Notes: a model not told the origin generated them from the letters alone. A DNA stretch of 64,000 nt from Scenedesmus sp. PABB004 (GCA_014905635.1 CM026547.1:4340001-4404000); one strand, 5' to 3'. Positions 39,105-48,083 are shown, counted from the first letter of the stretch. Translations and numbers: made by a program.

Positions 39105-41898
39105 ATGGCGGCGGCGCCTCAGCGCTCCCCCCTGGGCTGCACCGCCTCCGCGCCCGACAAGCCGGCGGCGCCGTTCGTGGCCTGGTGCGCCGAGCGTCGG
39201 GTGCTCTGGCCCAAGTGCGCCGTGGCGGACCTCCCGGCGACCGGGCGTGGCGTCGCCGCGACGGCCGACATTGCGGCCGGCGAGGTGGTGGTCGAGGTGC
39301 CCGACGACGCGGTGCTCATGGCGGAGAGCTGCGCCATCGCCGAGGCGCTCGCGGGTGCGCGGCCGCGCGCGTGCGCGCGCGCCCGGGGGTCCGCGCCGAC
39401 CTTCGCGCCGCCCGCCGCGCCCGCCGCGCCCGCCGCCGTCCGCCGCGCCCGTCACCGCGCCCGGCGCGCCCGCCGCAGCCGACGGCCTGGTCAAGGAGTG
39501 CGCCGAGGACGCGCTGCTGGAGGTGCAGGGCCTCGTGCTCGCGGTCATGGCCGAGCGGCGCGCCGGCGGCGCGTCGCGCTGGGGGCCATACCTCGCCCTC
39601 CTGCCGGACGACATGACCCACATGCCCATCTACTGGGAGGTGAGGCCCGGGCTCGGCCCAGCTCCGAGCTCCGAGCGCGCCCGAGCTCCGAGCTCAGAGC
39701 TCAGCCGAGCTCCGAGCTCTGAGCTCTGAGCTCTGAGCTCAGCCGAGCTCCGAGCGCGCCCGAGCTCTGAGCGCGCGCGCGCCGCGCCGCGCCCGCCGCG
39801 CAGGACGCGGAGCTGGCGGAGCTGCGCGGCACGGCGGCGCACGACAAGATGGTCGGACGGGTGCAGCACCCGGCCGACGCGCCGACACGGGTGGCGCAGC
39901 TGTTTGAGGAGCTGGTGCTCCCGTTTGTGCAGGCCCACGCCGACGTGTGCCAGGCGCTGCTGGGCAAGGCGCCGGGCGACGTCGACGAGTCCGAGGCGCG
40001 CGAGGCGCTCTGGCCGGTGCGGCGGCCGCCGCGCCGCGCCGCTCGCCGCACTGCACTCCGCGCGGCGCCGGCGCTCGCGCCCCCCGCGCGCTCGCACGCT
40101 CCGCGCCCGCCGCGGCCGGCGTCGCCGCGCGCAGCTCTACCGCTGGGCCACGTGTGCGGTGGCCTCGTACTCGTTCGTCCTCGGCGACGACCAGTACCAC
40201 GCGATGGTGCCGGTGTGGGACCTGCTCAACCACGTGACGGGCGCGGCCAACGTGCGCCTGCACCACGACGCCGAGCGCGGCGCGCTGCAGGTGCGCGCGC
40301 GCACGCCGTGCCACCGCGGCGGCGAGCTGCCCGCGCGCTGCCCGCGCTCTCTGCAGCTGCCGGCGCGCTGCCCGCGCGCTGACGCACGCCGCCGCCGCCG
40401 CCGCTGCCGCGCAGATGATCGCCACGGCCGCCATCCCGGCGGGCGCGGAGGTCGTCAACTGCTACGGCGCCCTCTCAAACGCCGAGGCGCGGCGCGCAGG
40501 GGGCGCGCCGCTGCCGCCGGCCAGCGGCCGTGCACACGGCCAGCGGCGGCACAGTGCGGCGCATGTGCGCGCGCCGCCGACGCCGCCGCCGCCGCCGCTC
40601 CCGCCGCCGCCGCAGCTGCTGCGCGGGTACGGCTACGTCGAGGCACACAACCCGCTGCGCCACGTGCAGGTGCCCGCGCAGTTCCTGATTCGGGCTGCGG
40701 CGGGCGCCGCCGGGCAGGCAAGCGGCGACGGCGGCGGCTCGGGCCCGGCGGACGCCGGCGCCGGCGCCGCGGACGACGGCGCCGGCAGCAAGCGTGCGTC
40801 AGGGTCAGGGTCAGAGGAGGGCTCTGACAGCGGCGACGAGGGGTCGGACGAGGGCGAGGAGGGGTCGGGCTCTGAGGAGGAGGAGCCGGACTGGGACCTG
40901 GAGGACGACGAGCCGTCGGCGGGCGCGCCCGCGCCCAGCCTGGCGGCCGCGCAGGCGCAGCTGGCGGACTGGGAGGACCGCTGGCAGCTGTGCTTCAACT
41001 GCAAGCTGCTGCCCAGCAACGGCGTGTTCCAGGTCCCCGCCGGCGGCCTGGCCGCGCTGCCCGCCGCGCTGCTGCCGGCGCTGCTCGTGCTGCTCGCCTC
41101 CGCCGACGACTGCGCCGCGCTCGCCGAGGCCGCCGCGGCGGCCACGAGCAAGGCCAAGGCCGCCGCCGCGGCGGCAGCCGCGCCCCCGGCGCGCAGGGAC
41201 AAGCGCGGCGGGAAGGGCGCCAAGCAGGCCAAGGGCAAGGCGGCCAAGGGCGCGCCCGGGGCAGCGCCGCCGACGCGGCGGCCGCCGAGCTGGCGGCGGC
41301 CGTGGCGGGCCTGCGACTGGCGGCGCCGGCGGCGCTGCTGCACGCGCTGGAGCTGCTGGTGCAGCTGATGCAGAGTCGGCACACCTGCAGCCTGGAGGAC
41401 GACGAGGCGCGCGTGGCGCAGGCCGAGGCCGGGCAGCTGCCGCCGCGCCTGGCGGCGGCGGTGCTGGCGCGTGTGGGTGAGAAGCGGGTGCTCCGTGAGC
41501 TGGCGCAGGCGCTGGCGCAGCCAGGCGCGGAGCGGCAGCTCGCGGCGCAGGCGCGGCAGGCGCTGGCCGCGGCGCTGCAGCAGCTGGTGGCGGCGGCCGC
41601 GGCGGGGCCGCCCGGCGGCGGCTGCGGCGTCGCGGGCTGCTCGCACGAGCACGACAGCCACTGCGGCCGCGGCGGCGGCAAGAAGAGGCGGGCGCCGGCG
41701 GGCAGCGGCAGCGACAGCGACGGCGGCGGCGGCGGCGGCGAGGGGCCGCCAGCGGCGGCCGCCGGGCAGCGCCCGCCGCGCGCCGGCCGCGCCAAGGCAG
41801 CGACGGCGGCAGAGCCGGCTGAGGCGGCTGAGGCGGCTGAGGCGGGCGGCGCTTCGAGCAAAGCCGGCGGTGGCTTTGCGTTCAACTTTGCTCTGTGA
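39105..41898 (+). CDS. SET-domain protein-lysine methyltransferase (SETD6/Rubisco-LSMT class), multi-exon, one apparent frameshift
   Basis: TGRGVAATADIAAGEVVVEVPDDAVL, SRWGPYLALLP, YRWATCAVASYSF, MVPVWDLLNH and EVVNCYGALSNAELLRGYGYV. Confidence 0.9.
39660..39772. repeat. Intronic heptamer tandem repeat (CHGAGCT)n
   Basis: Repeated ccgagct/ctgagct/cagagct units fill most of the intron. Confidence 0.85.
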
Positions 41899-41991
41899 CG
41901 CCCCGACTGTTGCAACCGCGCCGGGCATCCGCGGCTGCGCAGAGCCGCCGCCCCGCCGCCGCGCCACAGAGCGCGCGCACGCGTGCGCGCC

Positions 41992-43395
41992 TCAGGCTGA
42001 GGCCGCCTCAGCCGGCGGGCCGCTGCTGCCGCGCACCGCGGGCGCGGCGCTCTCGTGCAGGTAGTCCACCCAGCTCTCGAGGTATTGTCCGCTTCCGTAC
42101 CAGTCTGCACCCTCCGGGACGCCGACCGGCACGTGCGCCGCGCCGTTGAGCTCGATGTGCTCCGCGCCCTCCAGCGCTGCGCGCGTGCGCCGGCCGGCGC
42201 GGCGGTGGCGGCGCGGCGGTCGCTGCGCCCGCGCGGGCCGCGCGCGCGAGCCCCCCGCGCCTGCCCCCCGCGCGCTCTCACCGAGCGCGCACGACAGCGG
42301 CGTCACACCGTCGCCCCACGCAGAACCTTCTCCACTGCAGATCTTGTAGCTCTGGTAGGCGAAGTCTCCCGTCGCCCCGCCGAGCCAGGGCTTGCCCTGC
42401 ACGGTCTTGCTGCCGACGGCGACGTAGCTGCGGCCGCGGGCGGACGCGGCAGCGGGCGCGCACTCGGGCGCAGGCCGCGACAGTCGGCGGCGGCGCGCAG
42501 CTGCCTGCCTTGCTGGAGAGGCGGTCGCTGGCATCAAGCCCCAGGCGCTCAGCTTCAGCCCCCTGCCCCCGCCTCACCGCACGTCTGCCTCGTGCGCGCC
42601 GGGGCAGTGCGAGTTGACCCAGCCGATGTTTCGCAGCGTCACCGGCTCGAAGCTGTCGTGCGGCGTGCCCAGCGTCACGAGCGTGTGCACCCTGGGCGAC
42701 GAGCGAGGGCGCGCGAGCCTCAGCACACGCGGCACCTCTCTCCCACCTGTCGCGCGCGTGCGTGGGCGCGGCGGCGCGGGCACGCCAGGCGCGCACCTGT
42801 CCGCGCCGTGGAACGTCGCACCGCTGTAGCGCTGCGAGCGGCTGAGCAGGATACGGCTGATCCAGCCCCCCGCCGATGAGGCGACGAGCGCCGCGCGCTG
42901 CGCGCCCGCCCACGGCCCCGTCAGCTCGAGCGGCGGCTGCGCGCCAGTCGACGCGTCGCGCAGCTCGCGCAGCCGGTCGGCGAGCGTCGCGGGCCGCGGC
43001 AGCGGCACCTCGTACCCTGCGCGCGGCGCGCGCCGGCGGTCGGGGCGCGCCGCCCGCGCGCCGGCCGCGCGCCGGCCAGCCCCGCGCACACCCGTTGCCT
43101 CGGACACCTCCGCGCCCGCGAGCAGCTGCGTGAGCGCCCAGTCCACGCGGTCGAGAATCGGCCGCACCGAGCGGCCCCCGAGCGTCGGGAGCCAGTCGCC
43201 AGCCTTGATCGGCGGCAGCGCCGCGTTGAAGCCGCGCGAGCGCAGCTCCGCGACGAGCGGCACGAAGGGCGCGGAGCCCAGGTAGAAGGCGGGCACCACC
43301 AGCACCGGCGGGCCGCGCGCCGCGCCGAGCTGCTGCGCCGCCCGGCCGGCTGAGGCTGCGGCCGCCCGGCGCGGCGCCGCGCGGGGCGCCTGCAT
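41992..43395 (-). CDS. Alpha/beta-hydrolase (esterase/lipase, PGAP1-like) protein, multi-exon
   Basis: PVLVVPAFY, DWLPTLGGRSVRPILDR, nucleophile elbow LVASSAGGWISR, VHTLVTLGTPH, GDGVTP (Asp), GAAH (His) and WYGS. Confidence 0.85.
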
Positions 43396-43653
43396 CGGCC
43401 GTGCACCCCGCGCCGGCCGTGCACCCCGCGCCGGCACGCGCAGCGGCGGCGGCAGCAGCGGCGGCGGAGCACGCGCTGCCGGCGGCGGCCGACGGCAGAC
43501 GCGCGCGGCGCGGCGCTGGGGTGAGAACCACGCGGCGTTGGCCCGGGCTGGCGTGGCTCGCCGGGCCACCGCCTGAAGCCAGCGGCCGCTGAACAGCGGC
43601 CGCTGCGCTCCCGCATCGCGCCCCTCAAAGCCCCCGCCGCGCGCCCCGCCGCC

Positions 43654-43802
43654 TCGATCCTTCCACGGCGCGGCCTTCGTGCCGCGCCTGGTTTTTTCTC
43701 ATGATGAGCGGGATGCCAGCCCTGTGGCTGAGCGGCGTCGACCCCCCAACCTTGTAACCAGGGGCGCCTACCCAATCTGAACCGAAAAACCGGAAGGATC
43801 GA
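43654..43802 (+). ncRNA. Candidate structured RNA with box C/D (K-turn) motifs
   Basis: ATGATGA (43701-43707) and CTGA (43777-43780) are enclosed by stems GGTTTTTTC/GAAAAACC and TCGATCCTTCC/GGAAGGATCGA, with internal hairpins. Confidence 0.45.
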
Positions 43803-44150
43803 CGCGGGCGGCGGCCCGGGGGCAGCGCGAAAAAATCCGGCGATGATGCCTGGCGGCGCCAGGCCCGCAGCGCGGCCCTGGGCCGCGCCTGCCGCGGAGG
43901 CGAAGCCCCCTGACGCGCTGGCCGCGAAGGCCGCACCACAGCGGGCCCAAGGACGCGCAGCGGCGGGCGGCGGCGGCGGCGGCAGATCAACAGCAGCAGG
44001 TGAGGGCGCCGTGCGCGGGCGGCCGGGGCCCCCGCTGGGTGCGCTCCAGCGCGGCAGCTTCAGCGCGCCAGGCAGCAGCTGTTGGCGGGCGGGCGCGCAG
44101 CGGCAGCGCGCGAGCAGGGGCGGCGGCGGCAGGGCGGCAGCCCACCCTCG

Positions 44151-44237
44151 GCCGACCTGATCCTGGCTGGCGCTGGGTGCGGGCTTCAAACCCGTAGCGC
44201 CCGGGAGGGCGAGTGGTTCGATTCCACCTGGTCGGCG
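44151..44237 (+). tRNA. trnU: tRNA-Sec (anticodon TCA), copy 1
   Basis: 87 nt. 9-bp acceptor GCCGACCTG/CTGGTCGGC with U.U mismatch, 6-bp D stem with 4-nt loop, loop CTTCAAA (TCA at 44186-44188), long variable arm, 4-bp T stem GTGG/CCAC, discriminator G. This is the eukaryotic 9/4 fold. Confidence 0.95.
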
Positions 44238-44328
44238 TGCGGCGCAGCGCAGCGGCGGCGGCAGACAGCGCGGCAGCGCGGCAGCGCGGCAGCGTGCGAG
44301 CAGGGGCGGCAGCGGCAGCCCACCCTCG

Positions 44329-44415
44329 GCCGACCTGATCCTGGCTGGCGCTGGGTGCGGGCTTCAAACCCGTAGCGCCCGGGAGGGCGAGTGGTTCGAT
44401 TCCACCTGGTCGGCG
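44329..44415 (+). tRNA. trnU: tRNA-Sec (TCA), copy 2
   Basis: Identical to copy 1 by inspection. Confidence 0.95.
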
Positions 44416-44506
44416 TGCGGCGCAGCGCAGCGGCGGCGGCAGACAGCGCGGCAGCGCGGCAGCGCGGCAGCGTGCGAGCAGGGGCGGCAGCGGCAGCCCA
44501 CCCTCG

Positions 44507-44593
44507 GCCGACCTGATCCTGGCTGGCGCTGGGTGCGGGCTTCAAACCCGTAGCGCCCGGGAGGGCGAGTGGTTCGATTCCACCTGGTCGGCG
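44507..44593 (+). tRNA. trnU: tRNA-Sec (TCA), copy 3
   Basis: Identical to copy 1 by inspection. Confidence 0.95.
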
Positions 44594-44676
44594 TGCGGCG
44601 CAGCGCAGCGGCGGCGGCAGACAGCGCGGCAGCGCGGCAGCGCGCGAGCAGGGGCGGTAGCGGCAGCCCACCCTCG

Positions 44677-44763
44677 GCCGACCTGATCCTGGCTGGCGCT
44701 GGGTGCGGGCTTCAAACCTGTAGCGCCCGGGAGGGCGAGTGGTTCGATTCCACCTGGTCGGCG
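44677..44763 (+). tRNA. trnU: tRNA-Sec (TCA), copy 4 (C>T at 44719, G.U pair in the anticodon stem)
   Basis: Same fold, with TTCAAACCTGTA instead of TTCAAACCCGTA. Confidence 0.92.
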
Positions 44764-44844
44764 TGCGGCGCAGCGCAGCGGCGGCGGCAGACAGCGCGGC
44801 AGCGCGGCAGAGCGCGGCAGCGCGGCAGCGGCAGCCCACCCTCG

Positions 44845-45612
44845 GCCGACCTGATCCTGGCTGGCGCTGGGTGCGGGCTTCAAACCCGTAGCGCCCGGGA
44901 GGGCGAGTGGTTGCCGTGGCGTGCTGCTGCTGCGTGACCTTCATTTGGTGCTGAGCTGGGCGCGGCTGGCTCGGGGCGCGGCGCGCGCGTGGGTGTGGGC
45001 GGCGGTGGGGGAGCGTGGGCGGGCTTGCGGCAGGCTTCTTGGTGGTGGGCGGTGCGTGCGGCTGGCCTTTTGGCCGAGCCGCCCGCGGGTCCTGGAGGGG
45101 GCTGGAGCTGGTGGGCGTTGGCCGGCGCGGGGCGGCGGTCGCCGCGGGCCACGGCCCCGCGCGCGACGCCCAGCCGGCGCACGCCGGCCCCGCAGTGTTG
45201 AGTCCACAGAGTCTCCACTAGCCGCCCTGCACGGCCTACTCGCGTCTACCGGTCATCCTTCCCCAAGCTCCTAACATTCGGTGCACCACGTCGCAGGGGG
45301 CGCGACTCTGCGAGTGACGGTCGGCGGGGCGCGGCGCGGCGCGGCGTGTGCTGCGTGTGCGCCAGGGCGGGCTTGCCGCGGTTTGTGTGGTGCCCCTGCT
45401 GGTGGCGGCCTGCCCCACGTCGTTTGCTTGAGATGAGGCGGGGTTTGCGCTGGTTTTCCCCCGCTGCCCCTGTGGCCCGGTAGGGCCTGCGCGGCGTGGT
45501 TGCACGGGTCAAGAGGACCAGCTACCGTCCTTAAGGGGCGCGGGCCCGATATGCGCGAGCATACGGGGTAAATGACCTTGACCTTGAGTGGTTCGATTCC
45601 ACCTGGTCGGCG
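44845..45612 (+). pseudogene. tRNA-Sec copy 5, split by an insertion (5' part 44845-44912, 3' part 45586-45612)
   Basis: The 5' 68 nt end at GAGTGGTT. The gene resumes at GAGTGGTTCGATTCCACCTGGTCGGCG, followed by the normal unit 3' flank TGCGGCGCAGCGCAGCGG. Confidence 0.9.
44913..45585 (+). mobile_element. 673-bp insertion, probable 5'-truncated non-LTR retroelement (LINE 3' end or SINE-like)
   Basis: Direct repeat GAGTGGTT at 44905-44912 and 45586-45593, no obvious TIRs, and a 3' tail TGACCTTGACCTT. A frame is open from the left junction to TAA at 45272-45274. Confidence 0.7.
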
Positions 45613-46905
45613 TGCGGCGCAGCGCAGCGGCGGCAGCGCAGCGGCGGCAGCGCAGCAGCGGCGGCGGCAGCGCAGCAGCGGCGGCGGCAGCGCAGCGGCG
45701 GCGGCAGCGCGGCGGCGGCGGCGGCGGCGGCAGAGCGCGACGGCGACGCAACGCAGCGGCGGCAGCGCCAGCGCTGGCACAGCGCAGCGAGCGGCGAGGC
45801 GGCGCGACCAGCGGCGTGGGGGCGGTGGGCGGGCGCGAATGTAACGAATAACATACTGGCTTACCGACCGCTGGCGTCAACCGCCGCCGTTTGCCCATGC
45901 ACAGCGCGCAAACCACACGCCTGCACCACGCACACGACGCAGACAGGCACGCGCCCCCGCGTCGCGTACATGTCGTGCTGTCGTCAATACTCCAGCCGCG
46001 CGAGCGATTGAACGCCAGCGGGCTCTAGGCACAGCAGGCAGCGCCAACAGGGCCCTGAAGGGGGGGAGGGGTGGTGGTGGTGCGCCCGGCCGAGCGTCGC
46101 AGCCTGCAGGCAGCGCGCACACGCACGCCGCGCGCCGGCTGTGCCTGCTGCTGGACGCATTGGTTGATTGATCGAAGCGTTAGGCAAGCAAGGGACCCAG
46201 TCCAGTGCACGTGGAAAGCAGTCAGTTGAGCCTCGACTGAGGCGCAGTCGAGAGTGCAGTGCAGCGTCGCGCTTGGAACCGAGCCAGCGAGCAACTCAAC
46301 CCAGGAATTCAACCCTGTGCGGCAGGGGGTTTGTTTATTGTGTCTGCACACCCTGCTCGCGCGAGCGAGCAACGAGGGCTCCGAATTGTGCCGACCTCTC
46401 CGCTTGATTTGCAGGGACAGTGCGCACCGGACGGGGCAAGCAGCCGACCGTGCCAGCCTCTCTCAGTGCGTGCGGTGCGCGCGCCGGCAAAAAGGCGGGC
46501 GATCACGGGCAGGCAGGCCGTCATGGGCAGCGCTTGATTCGTTGGGGCGGCTCATAGCCAGTGCAGCGCCCGAGCGGGCGCGGTGTCGCTACTCCTGCAC
46601 AGGTGCAGGCCGGGGCGGCGGCGCGCGCGCGCGCGCCGCCCCCCAAGGGAGGTGCATGGCGATGTGTGCGTGTGTGGACACGCACGTGGAATGCGCGCGG
46701 GAGGAGCATGCAGTGCGATCAGTCAACTGTCGACACGCATGTGCGTGCAGGCCCTGCCTGCAAGTGTGTGTGCGCTCAGTCCTCCATTGTCAAGCAGCAG
46801 CTCACCCCCAGACCAACTCCACCCCACGCCATCAGCGTACGCTGACGGCACGGGCCGCATCCATTCGGACGCACGGCCGGCCGCCGGCGCGGCAAGCCGC
46901 CGGGC

Positions 46906-48083
46906 TCACAGCGCGAGGAGCCCCGCCGCCGGGCGCAGGAGCGGGGCGCACGCGGCGCCCCAGGTGGCGACGCTGTGCTGCGTGCGCGCGACCGCGATGG
47001 CCTGAATCTCAAGCTCCAGCTCCTGCAGCTGAGCCACCAGTCCCGACAGGCGCGCGCGCGTGCTGGCGGCCAGCTCCGCCGCGCCGGCGCCCGCCGGCGC
47101 GGCGGCGGCGGCGGGCGCGCCCCACGCGCCCGCCGTCGCGGCGTGGTGCAGGTTGGAGCTGAGCGCGCCCGCCGCCGCGAGCTGCTGCCCGATCAGCAGG
47201 TCCAGGCTGGCCTCGGCGGCGGGCCCGCCCAGGCTGGGCGCCGCGCCGAGGGCGCACTCCATGCGCTCGAGCTCCGCCTCCAGCCACGCCAGCTGCTCGT
47301 CGCCGGCCGGCCGGCACCAGGCCTCAGCCAGGGCGGCGGCGGCCGCGTCCGCGCTCAGCGCTGCGCTGCTGCTCGCGGCGGCCGCGGGCGCGCCGCCTCC
47401 CCAGTCGGCGCCCCAGGCGGCGCCGGACTCCTCCGACACGCACGTCGTGGCGCTGGGGCTCGCGGCCGCGCACGCGGCGTGGCCGCCCGGCCAGGCGCCC
47501 ACGGGCGAGGACGTGGCGGCAGGCCCGCTGGCCGCCGCCGCCGCCGCCGCCTCGGGCGCGCCCTCGAACGACTGGCAGGGCGCCGCCCGCCCGCGCTGGG
47601 GGCGGCAGGGGTGCCCGGTGTGGCGCAGGCGCTCGAGCGCCTCGCTGTTGGCGCGCTTCTTGAGCAGGCTCGCGCGGCAGCTGCGCTTGGCGCCGTCAAA
47701 GCACGACAGCGCCTGCAGCTTGCCGCACTGCTGGCAGAAGCGCCAGCGCTCGTCGCTGCCGGCGATGCACAGCGAGTCCGCCGCGAGGTGAGCGGGGCAG
47801 AGGCGGCGCTTGCGGCAGTAGGGCTTGTCGCTCGCGGCCAGGTCGGCCCCGCAGCCGGCGGCCTGTGGGGACGGCGCGGGACGGGCGGCCTCTCAGCAGG
47901 CACGCGCGCGCGCGGCGCTGCTGCCCGCAGCCCGCGCGGGACGGGCGTGCGACGGACAGCGCCAGCAAGCGCGCGGCACAGCTGCCGCCGCCGCGGCCGC
48001 CGCGGCCGCCCCTGCAGTCGGCGGCGCACCTGGCAGAGGACCGTCCCGCGCCGTGTGGTGCTCGACGCGCTGCGGCGGACCAT
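46906..48083 (-). CDS. SBP-box (SQUAMOSA promoter-binding-like) transcription factor, 2 exons
   Basis: CQ/AAGCGADLAASDKPYCRKRRLCPAHLAADSLCIAGSDERWRFCQQCGKLQALSCFDGAKRSCRASL is an SBP zinc-binding domain. Confidence 0.93.

Follow-up and report, generated by a model that had tools for sequence, protein, structure and literature searches.

Tandem selenocysteine tRNA genes without ordinary tRNA transcription signals behind a probable U13 gene in Scenedesmus

Introduction

Selenocysteine tRNA (tRNA-Sec) genes are described as generally single-copy in eukaryotes (PMC13578239, PMC5330540), and their transcription is stated not to have been analysed in algae so far (PMC2943599). The subject here is a 64-kb stretch of the genome of the green alga Scenedesmus sp. 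PABB004 (G000:C1:4340001-4404000, hereafter the window), in which five tRNA-Sec units follow each other head-to-tail behind a candidate gene for the small nucleolar RNA (snoRNA) U13. More than one tRNA-Sec copy is reported for zebrafish (two), for spider, lancelet and Fragilariopsis (four) and for Diacronema lutheri (nine). As in Scenedesmus, several of these copies look functional, but the main texts, supplements aside, describe no compact tandem array and no snoRNA linkage, and the word “tandem” does not occur in the main text of PMC5330540. The meaning of the extra copies is left open in the texts of PMC5330540 and PMC13578239.

In Trypanosoma brucei, two tRNA-Sec genes are described as products of RNA polymerase II (Pol II), made within a polycistron (PMC2943599). 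The T. brucei genes lie between protein-coding genes, their B box is deficient, and transcription by Pol II was demonstrated (PMC2943599). The Scenedesmus array is alike in having more than one copy, no upstream RNA polymerase III (Pol III) elements and, as we infer here, a longer transcript from which the tRNA is released. It differs in its perfect B box, its abutting copies and the snoRNA upstream, and Pol II is proposed for it from sequence features.

In plant dicistronic genes, the tRNA comes first and supplies the promoter. In Scenedesmus, by contrast, the snoRNA would be the first gene and the source of the promoter. The joint precursor of a tRNA and a box C/D snoRNA in plants is described in work cited in PMC2875012 and PMC5122169, and further background on promoters and snoRNA clusters is found in PMC8287931, PMC7671301 and PMC5122169. 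Multi-copy tRNA-Sec genes and Pol II-transcribed tRNA-Sec genes are each known; the U13-linked tandem layout was not found described, and a literature search whose scope excluded most subscription papers and supplements returned no description of tRNA-Sec genes in tandem behind U13.

Identity and layout of the tRNA-Sec array

The array is a true tRNA-Sec homocluster and the sole tRNA-Sec locus found in the genome (40 Mb in 80 contigs), where a DNA search with the tRNA-Sec sequence hit at least five places, every one inside the array. The five units start 178, 178, 170 and 168 bp apart on the + strand (starts at 44151, 44329, 44507, 44677 and 44845; Table 1), with spacers of 91, 91, 83 and 81 nt, in a window whose G+C content is 70-84% along its entire length. 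ARAGORN calls four tRNA-SeC(TCA) genes in the window. Copies 1-4 reach 77.9, 77.9, 77.9 and 74.6 bits against the Rfam model RF01852 (cut-off 47), and the two parts of copy 5 reach 38.9 and 19.3 bits. The Rfam alignment and fold contain a 9-bp acceptor stem with a U.U pair, a 6-bp D stem, a 6-bp anticodon stem with a UCA anticodon, a long variable arm, a 4-bp T stem and a G discriminator (G73). The array therefore resembles eukaryotic tRNA-Sec in its 9/4 fold, UCA anticodon, 6-bp D stem, variable arm and G discriminator, and departs from it in having five head-to-tail copies, 81-91 nt apart, without promoter or terminator signals. The tRNA-Sec identity that a preliminary description had read from the sequence alone is confirmed by the covariance-model check it had proposed, with all four intact units above the cut-off. 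Two further ARAGORN calls, a tRNA-Thr (10660) and a tRNA-Leu (39679), lie in GC repeats without Rfam support and were dismissed.

Copies 1, 2 and 3 are identical, and copy 4 differs by the exchange C43T, which turns a G-C pair of the anticodon stem into G-U and keeps the pairing. Spacer 2 also equals spacer 1. The proposal of a recent or homogenised tandem amplification is supported. The preliminary count of four intact copies and one disrupted copy was likewise correct; its end point at 44912 was not, as copy 5 resumes at 45586-45612.

Table 1. Features of the U13 candidate and the tRNA-Sec array, in window coordinates
Feature	Position	Strand	Support or remark
snRNA-type upstream element CAA(A), at -30 relative to U13	43626..43629	+	motif defined here
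U13 (SNORD13-like) box C/D snoRNA candidate, single copy	43656..43782	+	Rfam snoU13 (RF01210) 26.3 bits
3' flank complementary to the U13 5' antisense element; closes a long precursor-like stem	43792..43801	+	
Splice-donor-like CAG|GTGAG, 151 nt before copy 1	43997..44004	+	weak, maybe chance
tRNA-Sec copy 1, intact	44151..44237	+	Rfam 77.9 bits; ARAGORN
Spacer 1, 91 nt, GCAGCGCG subrepeats; 2 T among first 81 nt	44238..44328	+	
tRNA-Sec copy 2, intact, same as copy 1	44329..44415	+	Rfam 77.9 bits
Spacer 2, same as spacer 1	44416..44506	+	
tRNA-Sec copy 3, intact, same as copy 1	44507..44593	+	Rfam 77.9 bits
tRNA-Sec copy 4, intact, C43T; preceded by 83-nt spacer 3	44677..44763	+	Rfam 74.6 bits
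tRNA-Sec copy 5, 5' part (nt 1-68); preceded by 81-nt spacer 4	44845..44912	+	
Non-autonomous non-LTR retroelement, 5'-truncated, (GACCTT)n tail, in T loop / B box of copy 5	44913..45585	+	
tRNA-Sec copy 5, 3' part (nt 61-87)	45586..45612	+	
TGTAA, 228 nt past copy 5	45840..45844	+	
First one-mismatch 3'-box match past U13	45909..45916	+	post hoc

Transcription signals at the array

Because none of the tRNA-Sec genes carries ordinary tRNA start or stop signals, they are probably cut from a long RNA that starts at U13. The control set comprised 26 ordinary tRNA rows from 32 loci (ARAGORN with a T-loop filter); loci without a call were dropped and some rows are duplicates, so that it is not the full gene set. 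A run of at least four T lies within 30 nt behind the gene in 25 of the 26 rows and at 34 nt in the last, and the tRNA-Sec array is the exception, with no oligo-T close behind any of the five copies. Leaving the insert in copy 5 aside, the first such run follows 3,865 nt after copy 5 and the first stretch with five T in seven 716 nt after it. The spacers hold 2-3 T per 81 nt and fold worse than shuffled sequences (z +1.96 and +1.47). All three dispersed full-length 5S genes have an oligo-T.

The start side is similarly bare. The A+T fraction at -45..-16 is 0.10-0.17 in the tRNA-Sec copies and has a median of 0.52 (minimum 0.27) in the ordinary rows, and neither a TATA box nor the CAA element found near -30 of small nuclear RNA (snRNA) genes in this genome (see below) lies upstream of any of the five copies. 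In its best register, the A box has two mismatches and lacks the invariant G10 and A14; among distinct ordinary tRNA bodies, 17 of 20 are perfect, one more is so after a by-eye shift of the offset, and two have one mismatch. A degenerate A box is usual for tRNA-Sec. A 17-nt leader, GCGGCAGCCCACCCTCG, precedes every copy without variation (5/5) and places TC|G one base before each tRNA. A search for k-mers shared upstream of the snRNAs and the tRNA-Sec copies returned GC-rich background words only, and a sigma-70 promoter scan was set aside as inapplicable to a eukaryote.

A metagenome scan for related algal loci returned five single tRNA-Sec genes on contigs of other organisms; all five show a TATA-like element upstream and four T (T4) downstream. 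These contigs are AT-rich, unlike Scenedesmus, and serve as a control only. Runs were compared with 43400-44328, which takes in the U13 region and one repeat unit (metagenome run X1, run X2, and the RNA runs X11 and X17). A diverged tRNA-Sec contig of X2 has no T4 in the 21 nt displayed behind the tRNA.

The preliminary description had correctly noted that the spacers have no TATA box. Of its two proposals, internal A and B boxes that suffice find no backing in an A box lacking G10 and A14, and a polycistronic precursor is supported. It had overlooked that a retroelement splits copy 5, that no copy has a terminator and that a U13 candidate lies upstream. Other tRNA genes of this genome are tandemly repeated too, in 1.6-kb and ~5-kb units that each have their own oligo-T (G000:C76:1199949-1204673 and C46:1606588-1617002).

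The U13 candidate and snRNA-type signals

The locus upstream of the array is a probable chlorophyte U13 gene. Its start lies 495 bp upstream of the array on the same strand, and a genome search finds it at one place. Plant U13 genes are described as recognised by their boxes, a 5' extension and complements to 18S rRNA (PMC2875012, PMC9226516). The candidate has a box C at 43701-43707, 45 nt from its 5' end (~30 nt are given for plant U13; PMC2875012), a box D at 43777-43780 at its 3' end, and antisense elements of 9 and 8 nt that are perfectly complementary to the 3' end of the alga's own 18S rRNA. The X2 contig over U13 carries six substitutions that leave the boxes and antisense elements untouched. 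The segment 43636-43826 folds at -97.5 kcal/mol (z -3.16, 1/200 shuffles as good).

Plant U13 genes are reported to carry Pol II-type promoters (PMC2875012). In Scenedesmus, U13 contains an internal run of six T, a Pol III stop, and is thus an unlikely Pol III product. Its upstream CAA is placed as in other snRNA-type genes of the genome: a CAA lies at -28..-30 in six of seven U1/U2/U3/U6 rows and in U13, against a background of 6.4% per 14-nt window. In an out-of-sample test, both U4 copies (identical upstream) were positive and U5 was negative, which gives 8/10 snRNA-type rows in total. Starts of the type TC|R are found in U1, U2, U3, U6 and U13; U4 and U5 do not start after TC. A 3' box, CAAA(A)CYAA, follows 7-10 nt behind all seven U1/U2/U4/U5 rows. 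Behind U13 it is absent from the next 30 nt even at two mismatches, and no exact match occurs before copy 1. U13 hence seems to have a start signal without a stop signal, and the array seems to have neither.

Two candidate end sites lie past copy 5. The first, at 45840, is a TGTAA, which we take to be the green-algal poly(A) signal. It also occurs 218 and 144 nt past the stop of two protein genes of the genome, and, as the window holds nine such sites where its composition predicts ~6, it is weak alone. The one-mismatch 3' box at 45909, one of 11 such sites on both strands of the window, is also weak alone. An intronic position of U13 in a host gene is argued against by its own -30 element. 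The donor-like site at 43997 is the only match to [CA]AGGT[GA][AC]G on the + strand of 43400-46900, and 9% of shuffles hold one; donor-like sites precede 4/7 snRNA-type and Sec rows and 4/23 tRNA rows, with a shuffle chance of 4-19% each. The acceptor near 43940 scores under the 90th percentile of all AG.

Some observations concern the small RNA genes themselves. The U1, U2, U4 and U5 loci on contig C46 have a compact set of snRNA signals, CAA at about -30 and CAAA(A)CYAA 7-10 nt past the gene. U5, where the CAA is missing, is found 786 bp upstream of a U4 copy that has the same orientation. U3 is of the plant type. The only full U6 gene (G000:C77:372889-372989) has neither an oligo-U 3' end nor a TATA box, and pairing is possible between its 5' flank and the ACAGA box; the U6 genes of Ulva and Chlamydomonas are reported to have a TATA box and a T-rich end (10.64898/2026.10.23.761446). 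The spacers of the ribosomal DNA (rDNA) on contigs C17 and C54 contain TGCTACAGGCCGG as a strand-specific repeat (164 vs 1). This repeat also lies behind U6 and, in part, behind two dispersed 5S genes, and is possibly a protein-bound terminator common to RNA polymerase I and Pol III.

How the array may be transcribed

We give even chances to a single read-through precursor, probably made by Pol II, that holds U13 followed by the five tRNA-Sec copies, and in which duplication raises the yield per transcript. Among its parts, the excision of the tRNA-Sec copies from one precursor is likely; Pol II as the polymerase, if there is such a precursor, is rather probable. Transcription would start at U13's snRNA-type promoter or a short way behind the U13 gene, run through U13 and the tRNAs, and end near the UGUAA and 3'-box-like sites at 45840-45916. 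U13 would be trimmed from the precursor, and RNase P and RNase Z, whose activities in tRNA processing are established, would release each tRNA. Initiation at a Pol II start should be rarer than at a Pol III tRNA gene, so that the head-to-tail duplication, possibly the result of unequal exchange in GCAGCG repeats that surround the tRNA-Sec gene, would lift the tRNA yield per transcript. An element mobilised by a long interspersed nuclear element (LINE) would later have disabled the last copy, a loss that four spare copies would tolerate. We infer the linkage to U13 and the dosage compensation on top of the observed layout, gene identity, missing signals, U13 features and insertion. More tentatively, and at somewhat less than even chances, tRNA-Sec may have lost its own Pol III promoter and terminator in this lineage and become the 3' passenger of a U13 Pol II transcript, a snoRNA-first operon in which duplication offsets weaker initiation and Sec decoding is tied to the control of ribosome biogenesis.

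Several points weigh against a Pol II precursor that starts at U13. The U13 candidate scores 26.3 bits (E 0.017), under the RF01210 cut-off of 46, over the full model length. Both motifs, the CAA and the 3' box, were derived post hoc from a small number of genes, some of them duplicates; the -30 CAA is missing from U5 and one U3 copy, and a CAA is absent from 58% of random 120-nt windows. The snoRNA 3' end may be formed without an snRNA 3' box. Behind U13, a transcript of its own could arise from another CAA..TC|R site at 43801, such sites occurring 0.42 times per kb. The RNA runs X11 and X17 gave no contigs and six pieces of 19-35 nt in GC repeats over the compared region, which is no evidence of silence either.

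The remaining points of this kind fit a Pol III polycistron, which would start before copy 1 or at any copy through the B boxes, end far downstream or at the T4 of the insert, and leave U13 a mere neighbour. The B box GGTTCGATTCC is perfect in copies 1-4 (that of copy 5 is split by the insert), although the same match is demanded by the T loop. The missing T runs do not prove Pol II in this genome because other genes lack a nearby oligo-T as well: the single full U6 gene has no T4 for 1,876 nt, the rDNA-linked 5S genes have none until +165, and one of two U3 copies has none until +157, the other having T4 at +1. SNAPC3 is present; this and the U3 copy with T4 at +1 led to the rejection of a loss of the whole type-3 promoter system. 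The excess of retroelement tails near ordinary Pol III tRNA genes (see below) raises the possibility that the insertion in copy 5 marks a Pol III-like array. Terminator-less polycistronic tRNA genes have a precedent in Chlamydomonas reinhardtii, as summarised in PMC3531208. Its clusters belong to a green alga, are closely spaced and lack oligo-T as here, but hold ordinary tRNAs with A and B boxes. Against this explanation, the region before copy 1 offers no A box, TATA, AT-rich upstream sequence or -30 CAA, no T-rich stretch follows for 716 nt past the last copy, and the region downstream of the array does not contain TGCTACAGGCCGG, the repeat found behind the U6 and 5S genes. A Pol III polycistron is judged unlikely.

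Lower still stands the chance that each copy is a Pol III unit of its own, with an upstream element that has escaped recognition (such as GCGGCAGCCCACCCTCG) and a non-T terminator, so that the array multiplies the gene dose, in line with the preliminary description. The invariant leader and its TC|G, placed as at the U1, U2, U3, U6 and U13 starts, speak for it, as do the non-canonical Pol III ends of U6. Recent duplication would, however, by itself leave the leader invariant, the starts of U4 and U5 are not preceded by TC, and the spacers are poor in T and fold poorly.

Copy number

At least three real copies are required by the three distinct spacers, the private single-nucleotide polymorphism (SNP) in copy 4 and the insertion with its target duplication in copy 5. 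Units 2 and 3 (spacer and tRNA, 178 bp) are identical, so the count may be wrong by one. Metagenome run X1 contains a 183-bp contig (contig 7) that consists of a tRNA and a spacer and stops 10 nt before the next copy, short of a second tRNA. It shows an 8-nt gap and otherwise no difference from the window; its spacer differs in two places from the 83-nt spacer and in 25 of 60 from the terminal trailer. As it holds a tRNA with a spacer variant absent from the window, this contig argues against an assembly artefact, and a second strain very probably has tandem tRNA-Sec genes too. In run X2, the U13 region and a leader-tRNA-spacer contig are present as separate pieces; their depths, 3.9 for U13 and 2.0 for the tRNA contig, do not measure copy number and were left unused. 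That the copy number is partly an assembly expansion, or that most copies are silent by-products of slippage in GC microsatellites, is very unlikely in view of the spacers, the SNP, the insertion and the X1 contig, even though units 2 and 3 are identical and selenoprotein demand looks modest.

The retroelement in copy 5

Copy 5 is interrupted and not truncated, its two parts being separated by a 673-bp insertion with an 8-bp target duplication (left 44905-44912, right 45586-45593; the first two bases of the right duplication are equally assignable to the element tail). From its sequence, the insert is a 5'-truncated, non-autonomous non-LTR (long terminal repeat) element. Among 49 genome matches, five copies including the insert are 97-100% identical over the whole 673 bp. 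Longer relatives reach ~560 bp further 5', so that the full element measures ~1.25 kb, many more shorter ones have the 3' end alone in common, and the (GACCTT)n tail ends nearly all copies. Four other copies have 5-9-bp duplications at unrelated targets, and in two further copies checked no target duplication was found. About 48 bp of the 3' end are common to a LINE whose open reading frame matches RVT_1 (E 1.8e-24) and, weakly, Exo_endo_phos. The insert thus resembles non-autonomous elements mobilised by APE-type LINEs in its 5' truncation, short-repeat tail, variable duplication and a 3' end common with a LINE that encodes reverse transcriptase.

A tRNA-specific insertion site was rejected, as the targets are unrelated and ARAGORN finds a tRNA in 2/29 element loci, both times the same gene, at a distance of ~0.7-1.2 kb. 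The insert family has no sequence-specific target, yet it shows an excess near tRNA genes. The tails of two related non-LTR families have 92 and 19 other exact matches in the genome and lie within 2 kb of 7/18 Rfam-ranked nuclear tRNA genes (0.14 expected) and of 1/13 further ones (8/31 combined, 0.24 expected), under a uniform null that ignores the clustering of elements in intergenic DNA; the 18 genes were drawn from 63 scored among 216 candidates. The two families may prefer the neighbourhood of Pol III genes.

Selenocysteine machinery and demand

SepSecS is present in the genome, and a short exon of a SelM-like gene has an in-frame CSG-TGA. Cys is found in three of four GPX loci and in the MsrA motifs of three loci. 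The fourth GPX locus (G000:C7:816516) reads ASE-TGA at the catalytic position with an unclear next exon border, and encodes either a Sec-GPX or a splice site that overlaps the codon. The Rdx match has no UGA in the part examined, and a SelK match was spurious. One clear selenoprotein gene among five families searched is a floor, since exon-wise searches miss short exons; together with Cys in most GPX loci, it does not bear out the view that the array reflects high Sec-decoding demand. Green-algal selenoproteomes are described as ranging from 0-5 to >20 (PMC7539508).

Neighbouring genes and other genome features

A SET-domain gene (weak Pfam match) lies at 39105-41898 on the + strand of the window. 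It is followed by a spliced gene at ~41990-43396 on the - strand, which diverges from U13 and has no Pfam match; presumably it contains a lipase-like motif. On the other side, an SBP-domain gene (46906-48080, - strand) converges on the array.

In the rest of the genome, the 45S rDNA repeat also contains 5S genes, which share the strand of 18S and lie ~1.1 kb upstream of it (G000:C17:535512, C17:547198, C54:12580 and C54:24883), and three dispersed 5S copies exist besides these. The 18S matches (G000:C54:8166-11487 and C17) span 3.3 kb against a 1.8-kb model, which suggests ~1.5 kb of introns. A tandem satellite of ~172 bp lies amid nested LINE and LTR elements at three loci, two of them near a contig end, and is possibly centromeric or subtelomeric. 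The assembly also contains organelle-like contigs, which, together with the SBP-domain gene, the plant-type U3 and the Sec machinery, indicate a green alga.

Implications

The copy number alone is moderately interesting; what merits experiments is the layout without promoters behind U13. Should the proposed U13-led precursor prove false, a well-delimited, compact tRNA-Sec homocluster with an unexplained promoter would still stand, together with a probable chlorophyte U13 gene. If it is true, the locus would add a snoRNA-first tRNA operon to eukaryotic gene organisation and offer a natural model of tRNA arrays driven by Pol II, such as those employed in multiplex guide-RNA expression. It would also mean that tRNA-Sec came under Pol II a second time, independently and outside the trypanosomatids, in a change in which the extra tRNA-Sec copies may compensate for the change of polymerase and not serve a large selenoproteome.

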